A DNA stretch of 7,753 nt, taken from a virus. Lineage: Duplodnaviria > Heunggongvirae > Uroviricota > Caudoviricetes. Every line of letters begins with the position of its first letter. The first letter of the stretch is position 1. Location: the IMG/VR virus record IMGVR_UViG_648276647_000005, positions 1-7,753 of that record, one strand, 5' to 3'. A program made the translations under genes and the position numbers. The notes beneath the pieces were generated by a model. It saw nothing but the letters and a program-made list of their open reading frames with translations. It had not been told where the DNA came from and made no database searches. Shown piece after piece: positions 899-2,020 of the stretch.

Positions 899-1453
899 AT
901 GAAGTTAGAAGATTTCGCAGCTTATAACCGCCCTCAATCGAAGGTGTCCGATGAGAGGAAATTTCTTGATTACATTCACAGTCGGAACAGATGGGTTGAG
1001 TTTATCAAAAGCATCGATAACGCAAAGCCAGTATCAATTGCCATGAAAAATTCATTCCATAGTCAATGGGTTGAGTCTGGGGCCTTTATACGTGAAAAGA
1101 TCAACGACGACTCAATTCTCCTCAAACTATTAACGCTCTTATTGCCAACATATGATGGTGACAGCCTTGTACTTTATCGGGGGGAAAATAAAGACAGGTT
1201 CGATAAAGGGCTCATTGGATTTTGCTGGACAACGGACATTTCAGTCGCCGAGAAGTTTGGTCGTGGATTGAATGCATACAAATCACCAGGTTTGCTGTTA
1301 AGAGCTGAAGCTCCAGCCTGTTCTATATTAGCTGGCCCCAATGCCCACAGTCGTTATCTTGGTGAAAATGAGTTCACGGTTAACCCCTCGCGTCTTTCAA
1401 ACATAACCGTTATTGAAACCTATCCAGACAACTCTTTTTCAGATGATGAATAA
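899..1453 (+). CDS. hypothetical moron protein, 184 aa, opposite orientation to the phage late operon; possible ADP-ribosyltransferase-like C-terminal half
   Basis: ATG at 899 preceded by AGGAA (891..895); stop TAA at 1451..1453. The track ORF 503..1453 is an upstream extension antisense to the terminase gene. Protein is soluble with no signal peptide or TM segment. Contains LYRGE (R94), WTTDIS (111..115) and GENEF (E156, E158) in that order. Codon usage is visibly more AT-rich than the flanking phage genes. Confidence 0.7.
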   Translation: MKLEDFAAYNRPQSKVSDERKFLDYIHSRNRWVEFIKSIDNAKPVSIAMKNSFHSQWVESGAFIREKINDDSILLKLLTLLLPTYDGDSLVLYRGENKDRFDKGLIGFCWTTDISVAEKFGRGLNAYKSPGLLLRAEAPACSILAGPNAHSRYLGENEFTVNPSRLSNITVIETYPDNSFSDDE

Positions 1454-1578
1454 ATAGATGCCCTATACTTCACCCGCCACTGGTACGCCGTTTCGATGGC
1501 CTCCCAGTCCGGTTTTGCCATGAATTTTTCCTCTTAGTGACATTATCGAAGCCCCTTATCAAAGGAGCTTCTGTAATG

Positions 1579-1764
1579 TCAGTCCCGAACGAACGTAACC
1601 TTCGTGTTCGTCGCTCGCCGTACAAGGCGCGCCGCTTCGCGTTGCATTTCATCGATAACTTTTGGCGTCATCGGCTGATGCGCATATTTACGTTCAATCT
1701 CTGCAAAAATCCCGTTCATCGTTTCGCTGTCTGGTGGGATAACTTTAACGTTTAATCGTGCCAT
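1579..1764 (-). CDS. hypothetical small protein, 61 aa (MARLNVKVIPPDSETMNGIFAEIERKYAHQPMTPKVIDEMQREAARLVRRATNTKVTFVRD)
   Basis: ATG at 1764..1762 (the track's longer version starts at a TTG). Same orientation as the late operon, directly after Rz1. Protein-like composition, but no clear Shine-Dalgarno. An antisense ORF at 1576..1755 (+) with a strong AAGGAG SD competes with it; see findings. Confidence 0.4.
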   Translation of the reverse strand: MARLNVKVIPPDSETMNGIFAEIERKYAHQPMTPKVIDEMQREAARLVRRATNTKVTFVRD

Positions 1765-2020
1765 TGGTTTGTGCTGCCCTGTTTTTCTCAAAAGCCCTGA
1801 TATCAGCCTTATCCCTGTTGCACTGTGCTAACGCTGACAACAACGCAACATTCAGGTTAAGGCTAGCTCCCCACGTAAACGGGTCGGGTAAATCTGGCTG
1901 GGGTGTTTCATCCGTCAGACTGGCTGGTAACGGAACGACCGGCACCGACACGTATACCGTTCGCGTATTCGTGCAACCGCTTAACTGCGCCAGAAGGAAC
2001 GATACGAACAGCGCAATCAT
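1745..2020 (-). CDS. o-spanin Rz1-like outer-membrane lipoprotein (overlapped type)
   Basis: Starts at an internal ATG (2020..2018) of the 114-aa track ORF, in the +1 frame inside Rz. Hydrophobic N-terminus MIALFVSFLLAQLSGC carries a lipobox (LSG|C) followed by a Pro-rich segment (VPVVPLPASLTDETPQPDLPDP). Extends 163 nt beyond the Rz stop. Confidence 0.65.
   Translation of the reverse strand: MIALFVSFLLAQLSGCTNTRTVYVSVPVVPLPASLTDETPQPDLPDPFTWGASLNLNVALLSALAQCNRDKADIRAFEKNRAAQTNGTIKR

Follow-up and report, generated by a model that had tools for sequence, protein, structure and literature searches.

A small conserved gene, a putative terminase remnant and a recurrent hairpin at the lysis-packaging seam of an Escherichia coli lambdoid prophage

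Positions 1420-1791 of a 7,753-nucleotide (nt) stretch of phage DNA (IMG/VR record IMGVR_UViG_648276647_000005, positions 1 to 7,753; hereafter, the window) very probably form the seam at which the lysis block meets the DNA-packaging block in the minus-strand late operon of an E. coli lambdoid prophage. The seam carries two small open reading frames (ORFs) that overlap on opposite strands, a third small ORF on the minus strand and a hairpin, and it borders an extra plus-strand gene, or moron, of 184 amino acids (aa). The three ORFs all lie where the first-pass annotation placed them, to within one base. By its family-wide conservation and the purifying selection upon it, the minus-strand ORF of 61 aa is a real gene, far beyond chance. 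The 59-aa plus-strand ORF opposite it is, to judge from the same comparisons, a chance antisense shadow of that gene, with start signals that are an accidental product of the hairpin arms. The 33-aa minus-strand ORF is recognizable as the remnant of a phrog_370-type terminase small subunit gene (terS), reduced to its ribosome-binding site and 13 codons, and the simplest history suggested by the alignments is a nonhomologous joint at 1481/1482. The overall picture is ordinary lambdoid mosaicism; the hairpin is the sole mildly novel item and may merit separate study. The features concerned are these:

1579-1764, minus strand: 61-aa protein-coding gene (phrog_12811, conservation, purifying selection), the last gene of the conserved lysis-side block
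1538-1581, minus strand: 44-nt hairpin, a candidate module-boundary element (folding, covariation, recurrence)
1482-1537, minus strand: apparent retained 5′ end of the replaced phrog_370-type terS, with the Shine-Dalgarno (SD) sequence AGAGGA at 1529-1534, ATG at 1519-1521 and 13 codons (MAKPDWEAIETAY)
1420-1521, minus strand: 33-aa stub ORF, 13 codons of the old terS continued by 20 unrelated ones that run into the moron at its 3′ end
1481/1482: putative recombination junction where homology breaks, the right end of the incoming block (moron plus Terminase_2 packaging genes)
899-1453, plus strand: 184-aa moron, on the opposite strand between the Terminase_2 terS and the stub
1576-1755, plus strand: 59-aa antisense shadow ORF, evidently not a gene (ratio of nonsynonymous to synonymous variation [pN/pS] 1.10, recoding expectation, hairpin-derived start signals)
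1745-2089, minus strand: Rz1/LysC o-spanin ORF (PF23793 LysC, E 1.1e-18)
328-879, minus strand: intact current terminase small subunit gene (Terminase_2, PF03592, E 6.9e-40), which would have arrived with the moron

The case for the 61-aa gene is the firmest. It runs from an ATG at 1764 to a stop at 1579-1581; the longest form of the frame would begin at a TTG at 1791 and comprise 70 aa, a start that was ruled out, the TTG being TTC in relatives and the N-terminal extension unconserved. The phrog_12811 profile covers the protein whole (E 2.5e-39, residues 1-61 on positions 1-61 of 61), and the NCBI Prokaryotic Genome Annotation Pipeline (PGAP) calls it as a RefSeq coding sequence, WP_000113285.1. 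A protein search returned 34 homologues, down to 59% identity, from Escherichia, Citrobacter, Pantoea and metagenomes, with Met1 invariant and lengths of 60-61 aa throughout. A scan for the family drew 4 loci from genome contigs and far more from viral contigs, and the 90 loci collected with the gene reduce to 44 distinct intact coding sequences. Across these 44 variants, the variable columns fall at codon positions 1/2/3 of the minus frame in the numbers 33/27/58, and pooled pN/pS is 0.275 in this frame versus 1.10 in the codon-aligned plus frame. AlphaFold2, run on the family alignment, predicts a beta-alpha-alpha-beta fold with a mean confidence score (pLDDT) of 94.7. The first-pass annotation of this DNA had flagged the two overlapping ORFs as mutually exclusive and proposed that related prophages be compared for the conserved frame; the comparison places the constraint on the minus strand. 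The same annotation had remarked on the weak SD of the 61-aa ORF, which is indeed weak because the ATG falls within the Rz1/LysC reading frame, 20 nt short of its end, an overlap kept in nearly all relatives. In divergent homologues without such an overlap, the start follows a strong SD (AGAGGTGG), or else the stop and start codons overlap as ATGA. From the position of its ATG, the 61-aa gene would be translationally coupled to Rz1, and it is a genuine late gene travelling with the spanin genes.

The stop codon of this gene, TGA, supplies the first three bases of the hairpin, which was not mentioned in the first-pass annotation. On the phage strand the element reads TGACATTA-CA-GAAGCTCCTT-tgat-AAGGGGCTTC-GA-TAATGTCA, with a predicted folding free energy of -25.9 kcal/mol (z -5.9). 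Among 19 distinct variants, 98% of the pair cells hold standard pairs and 6 of the 15 pairs have changed on both sides; the observed covariation score was reached in 0 of 500 shuffles, and no slid register approaches it. The outer CATTACAG and CGATAATG flanks and the 2x2 CA/GA internal loop are near-invariant across genera while the stem covaries. (In two variants, from loci L045 and L048, the internal loop has turned into perfect pairs.) A pattern scan of IMG/VR found the hairpin in at least 120 stretches, and overall it occurs in more than 190 phage loci, spanning phages of E. coli, Klebsiella, Citrobacter, Enterobacter and Pantoea. Among the matches listed, 102 of 120 have a co-directional ORF with its end at the 5′ side of the hairpin. 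The genes upstream of it are a mixed set without kinship (Rz1-like spanins, Rha [PF09669], phrog_875, phrog_9518, phrog_11822, Ig-like tail proteins and others), and so are the genes downstream (phrog_370 terS, Terminase_2 terS, a phage metallopeptidase and many more). After the 61-aa gene alone there are at least 6 unrelated right-hand neighbours, each beginning a few bases past ...GATAATG. The element is also strand-biased: predicted stability favours the sense-strand RNA in 53 of 62 distinct variants (mean -16.5 kcal/mol, versus -13.2 kcal/mol for antisense). Multiple copies within one genome were considered and rejected, Klebsiella phage ST16-OXA48phi5.2 having a single copy. A second hairpin type, TTATCCC-nnnn-GGGATAA, often stands after the boundary hairpin, which loci L094-L212 also carry.

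Because the stem is stable, contains G+C and stands where a gene ends, a simpler explanation suggests itself, that it is an ordinary factor-independent terminator serving either the lysis genes or the moron; lambdoid morons are often bordered by terminators. However, no T/U run follows the stem on either strand, a terminator scan gave 0 matches, and the same flanks and the same 2x2 internal loop are held across genera around a covarying stem. Nor is the hairpin a chance palindrome, because it recurs in more than 190 loci. Terminator and chance palindrome, taken together, are unlikely. The likeliest role of the hairpin would be that of an intercistronic RNA structure in a read-through late transcript, acting in 3′-end protection or as an RNase III-type processing site, and it would also serve as a crossover point, being a shared sequence of about 40 nt at module boundaries. 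More tentatively, and with the odds against it, one may see in the hairpin a strand-specific boundary element of enterobacterial temperate phages, hitherto undescribed, which closes cassettes at their 3′ ends and is at once processed or protective in late mRNA and used in cassette exchange. Rfam contains no family for it, with sub-threshold miRNA-like matches only, the site is unannotated in GenBank phage records, and a literature search brought up no relevant account of a hairpin at module boundaries or of an element at lysis-terS junctions. If true, the boundary-element proposal would account for the clustering of mosaic junctions a few bases past the 3′ end of the hairpin, and a functional hairpin could be used to mark where modules meet and to study how mosaic recombination and the expression of late operons are organized.

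Immediately past the hairpin lies the stub. The ORF begins with an ATG at 1521, preceded at 7 nt by AGAGGA (1529-1534), and ends with a stop at 1420-1422; the ORF and its SD are as the first-pass annotation gave them, except that the terminal coordinate, 1421, should be 1420. It shares 34 nt with the 3′ end of the moron. Only its first 40 nt are nonrandom, and these match the start of a terS gene: in blastn, positions 1482-1581 of the window match the region just upstream of terS and its first 40 nt in HK639, SEN34 and several Klebsiella phages. PHROG matches of the 33-aa ORF are correspondingly short and weak, confined to residues 1-17 (phrog_370, E 0.078; phrog_1206, E 0.0072). In relatives without the moron (locus L006 and about 20 IMG/VR loci), a full-length protein of 249 aa beginning MAKPDW... 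occupies the same place; it matches phrog_370 terS at E 2.9e-94 over residues 1-248, and in L006 its gene overlaps that of a PBSX-family terminase large subunit (TerL). The suggestion that the MAKPDW ORF was a truncated older gene, longer in relatives lacking the moron, was thus borne out. The 33-aa ORF itself has neither the full-length phrog_370 profile match with its N-terminal helix-turn-helix nor a cognate TerL beside it; the reverse moron and the Terminase_2 terS come next.

It might be argued that the stub is not a passive remnant but a functional small protein or leader peptide under selection. About 91 E. coli genomes have kept its SD and ATG whole, the stub is also retained in a second arrangement with a different moron (the A41 type, described below), and its translation might aid ribosome loading on a long untranslated antisense stretch. 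Against this, the tail beyond codon 13 is arbitrary and frameshift-variable even among close relatives (33 aa here; 41 aa in most close relatives, where the length of a run differs by 1 nt; and, in the A41 type, 46 aa ending in another tail), the conserved portion equals the terS N-terminus and nothing more, and the A41 copy has several substitutions relative to intact terS genes. We regard a selected function as improbable. Read as a remnant, the stub serves to date and locate the packaging-module swap.

As to how the remnant arose, the alignments break sharply at one point. The window aligns with L006 over 1482-3313 only, and identity with E. coli relatives that bear the full-length old terS starts exactly at 1482; the same break (query position 103) is found in many E. 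coli genomes. Alignment with L007, from E. coli A41, covers 1-915 and 1488-3313. Between E2348/69 and L006, homology is regained only inside the portal gene, such that terS, TerL and part of portal differ. No 3′ part of a phrog_370 terS was found on the other (left) side of the moron. The moron ATG is 19 nt from the start of the intact Terminase_2 terS, and the same pair with the same 19-nt spacer occurs in a Pantoea prophage. Moreover, about 180 E. coli genomes have this Terminase_2 terS without the moron, with homology ending at ~880-890, and in three loci (L107, L133 and L157) a Terminase_2 terS directly follows the hairpin. Since the old gene has left no 3′ part beyond the moron, and terS, TerL and part of portal are all different, these observations argue for module replacement and not insertion. 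In the ancestor, the hairpin would have been followed directly by a phrog_370-type terS (MAKPDW..., 249 aa) and a PBSX-type TerL; a nonhomologous recombination with its right end at 1481/1482 would have replaced everything past codon 13 with a block from another phage, comprising the reverse moron, the Terminase_2 terS, a TerL unlike the old one and a portion of the portal gene; and what remained, a ribosome-binding site and 13 codons, would now read through into 20 arbitrary codons.

The model of the first-pass annotation, in which the moron merely inserted into a pre-existing gene and split it, does not survive this evidence. It draws on the position of the stub, which abuts the 3′ flank of the moron, and on the G+C content of the moron (42%), which is below that of its neighbours. 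Yet a split gene should have left its other fragment to the left, where there is none; the moron stands only 19 nt from an intact Terminase_2 terS and is conserved with it as a unit in Pantoea; and no homology links terS, TerL and part of portal to their counterparts in relatives that keep the old gene intact. We consider simple insertion very improbable.

The moron is missing from relatives with adjoining flanking genes (L006, L107, L133, L157 and the ~180 E. coli genomes just mentioned). Its G+C content is 42.2% versus 46.9-49.9% in neighbouring genes, and at third codon positions 0.41 versus 0.47-0.50. A consensus scan of 700-2100, admittedly crude, found no sigma-70-like promoter and no intrinsic terminator. 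The protein matches phrog_30882; it has no named family in Pfam, NCBIfam or PADLOC, tblastn against GenBank phages gave no match, and the family profile gave none against PDB sequences. Homologues occur in Klebsiella, Pantoea and Methylomonas, some adjoining Abi_2/AlpA genes. An ADP-ribosyltransferase-like fold is probable, which we put forward as a lead and not as a claim of membership; as a candidate ADP-ribosyltransferase, the moron could be a lysogenic-conversion or defence gene. In A41-type prophages (L007, 2493-2954), the slot equivalent to 916-1487 is taken by another gene on the reverse strand, 151-153 aa long and without a family match, which shares with the window moron only the first ~17 nt and the upstream spacer, the break lying at ~1488. 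Two different morons in one slot suggest, as far as the alignments go, cassette exchange at a fixed site. Two further observations concern the 3′ end of the moron. In a homopolymer T/A run at ~1436-1441 the window is one base shorter than E2348/69 and most relatives, a difference that alters both the moron C-terminus (…NSFSDDE, 184 aa, versus …NSFFK, 182 aa) and the stub (33 versus 41 aa). In a Pantoea prophage (L214, ~3640-3680, minus strand), a short start, …GAGAATTTATGGCGACCAAACCCAAAAACTGG, MATKPKNW…, lies just past the 3′ end of the moron homologue; here, too, the beginning of a truncated gene might have been left next to this moron.

There remains the plus-strand ORF of 59 aa, from an ATG at 1576 to a stop at 1753-1755, which the first-pass annotation had described both as an antisense shadow and as a possible partner of the moron in a two-gene unit with a "textbook" SD. 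Codon for codon it lies exactly opposite the 61-aa gene, and for this reason the frame stays open: only TTA, CTA or TCA sense codons close it, and the 61-aa gene holds just one codon of this kind (Leu4). When the 61-aa gene is recoded synonymously, 62% of the recodings leave 57 or more codons of the antisense frame free of stops, and 7 of 10 other genes of the window have open runs of 51 or more codons in the same antisense phase. The SD is where it was said to be (AAGGAG at 1561-1566, spacer 8 nt), but as a gene signal it fails: it and the ATG both fall within the arms of the 44-nt hairpin, and CTCCTT/AAGGAG is present in only 4 of 19 hairpin variants. The description as a shadow has therefore held up and the two-gene unit has not. 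That the ORF is nonetheless a real gene, for instance an immunity or partner protein of an ADP-ribosyltransferase-like toxin (toxins of this fold are usually paired with a partner), might be urged from its start signals, from a frame that is open in most relatives and from the second plus-strand gene that follows the Pantoea moron homologue; this is hardly credible, given a pN/pS of 1.10 as against 0.275 on the other strand, a peptide that is unrecognizable in relatives whose minus-frame protein is still ~65% identical, no PHROG or Pfam match, an openness equal to the chance expectation, the presence of the same ORF in L006, which has no moron, and a second gene in Pantoea that proves to be an unrelated protein of 142 aa. 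The case is a cautionary one, in that the "textbook" SD and ATG of an antisense shadow ORF can come from a palindrome.

Several considerations weigh against the account given here. The pN/pS values of 0.275 and 1.10 are pooled pairwise values over sequences that are related and non-independent. The same relatedness affects the hairpin, for which shuffle controls overstate significance, so that the 0/500 result makes covariation supportive and not a formal proof; the two roles proposed for it, in RNA and in crossover, are both our reading of its distribution and structure. That the 61-aa ORF and the stub are translated and the plus-strand ORF is not is deduced from evolutionary patterns only. 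Finally, the order of events could differ: the junction of the A41 type may have arisen independently, as a second event, or through a later swap of the moron.

The surroundings are those expected of such a seam. The window represents late-region DNA from a lambdoid prophage of E. coli, with transcription on the minus strand and, beyond the seam, the late-region gene order:

4244-4906: Q antiterminator
2764-3114: holin
2284-2760: endolysin
1908-2300: Rz

The Rz1/LysC ORF is of the "overlapped" type, reaching ~160 nt past the end of Rz; its annotation by PGAP varies across genomes between LysC (345 nt) and a shorter hypothetical protein, and the likely lipoprotein start is the Met preceding LLAQLSGC (~2020). 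Farther off, at 6232-6556 on the minus strand, is a hok/sok-type toxin-antitoxin locus, comprising the only Rfam match across the window (sok, 6382-6556, 114.7 bits) and a Hok-like ORF (6232-6444, minus strand) with the C-terminus ...LIALIVICLTVIVTALVTRKDLCEVRIRTGQTEVAVFTAYESEE. Over the 451 nt around the site, 88 complete E. coli genomes, E2348/69, BL21/B and strain C among them, match at 98-99% identity, and the arrangement is thus open to experiment in widely used strains (E. coli B/BL21, C and E2348/69). For annotation, the 61-aa minus-strand gene should be retained, the plus-strand 59-aa ORF should not be called as a gene, and neither should the 33-aa ORF, which is better labelled a terS remnant.

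Each of these elements has a counterpart among known systems. The stub resembles the phrog_370 terS genes (HK639 gp1, SEN34 and Klebsiella phage GZ7), its ribosome-binding site and 13 codons having 95-98% DNA identity to HK639 and SEN34; it differs in lacking the helix-turn-helix and all that follows, and in that the adjacent TerL is of another type. The plus-strand ORF, lying exactly in the codon register of the 61-aa gene, is like other antisense shadow ORFs in the codon-aligned reverse frame, except that here a neighbouring palindrome supplies a convincing SD and ATG and makes the ORF look real. In its possible kinship with ADP-ribosyltransferase toxins of the R-S-E type (TreX/TreTu Rhs, ART2.2, Vis and C3), the moron departs from the model in having no sequence match to Pfam ADP-ribosyltransferase families or PDB chains, a family in which the second Glu of E-x-E is not invariant, and an extra N-terminal all-helical domain. 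The hairpin recalls repetitive extragenic palindromic (REP) elements, the RNase III sites of T7 and lambda sib, as an imperfect palindrome of ~40 nt just past stop codons, strand-specific, with an internal loop, and located in read-through polycistronic transcripts with no U-tract. Its sequence is, however, unrelated to the E. coli REP consensus and it usually occurs in one copy per phage genome; it is also absent from Rfam. If it is indeed a boundary element, it would be likened by function to REP elements or, more speculatively, to the attC sites of integrons. As for the seam as a whole, it differs from the mosaic junctions of the lambdoid phages (HK97/HK022 and P22-like phages, in the spanin-to-terS region) in that the joint falls 13 codons inside terS and not at a gene boundary, and from their morons in having no promoter or terminator recognizable by consensus scan. 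In all else the likeness is close: a sharp break in homology, the exchange of whole packaging modules, an extra gene of lower GC set among the late genes in opposite orientation, and a piece of a gene left at the joint.

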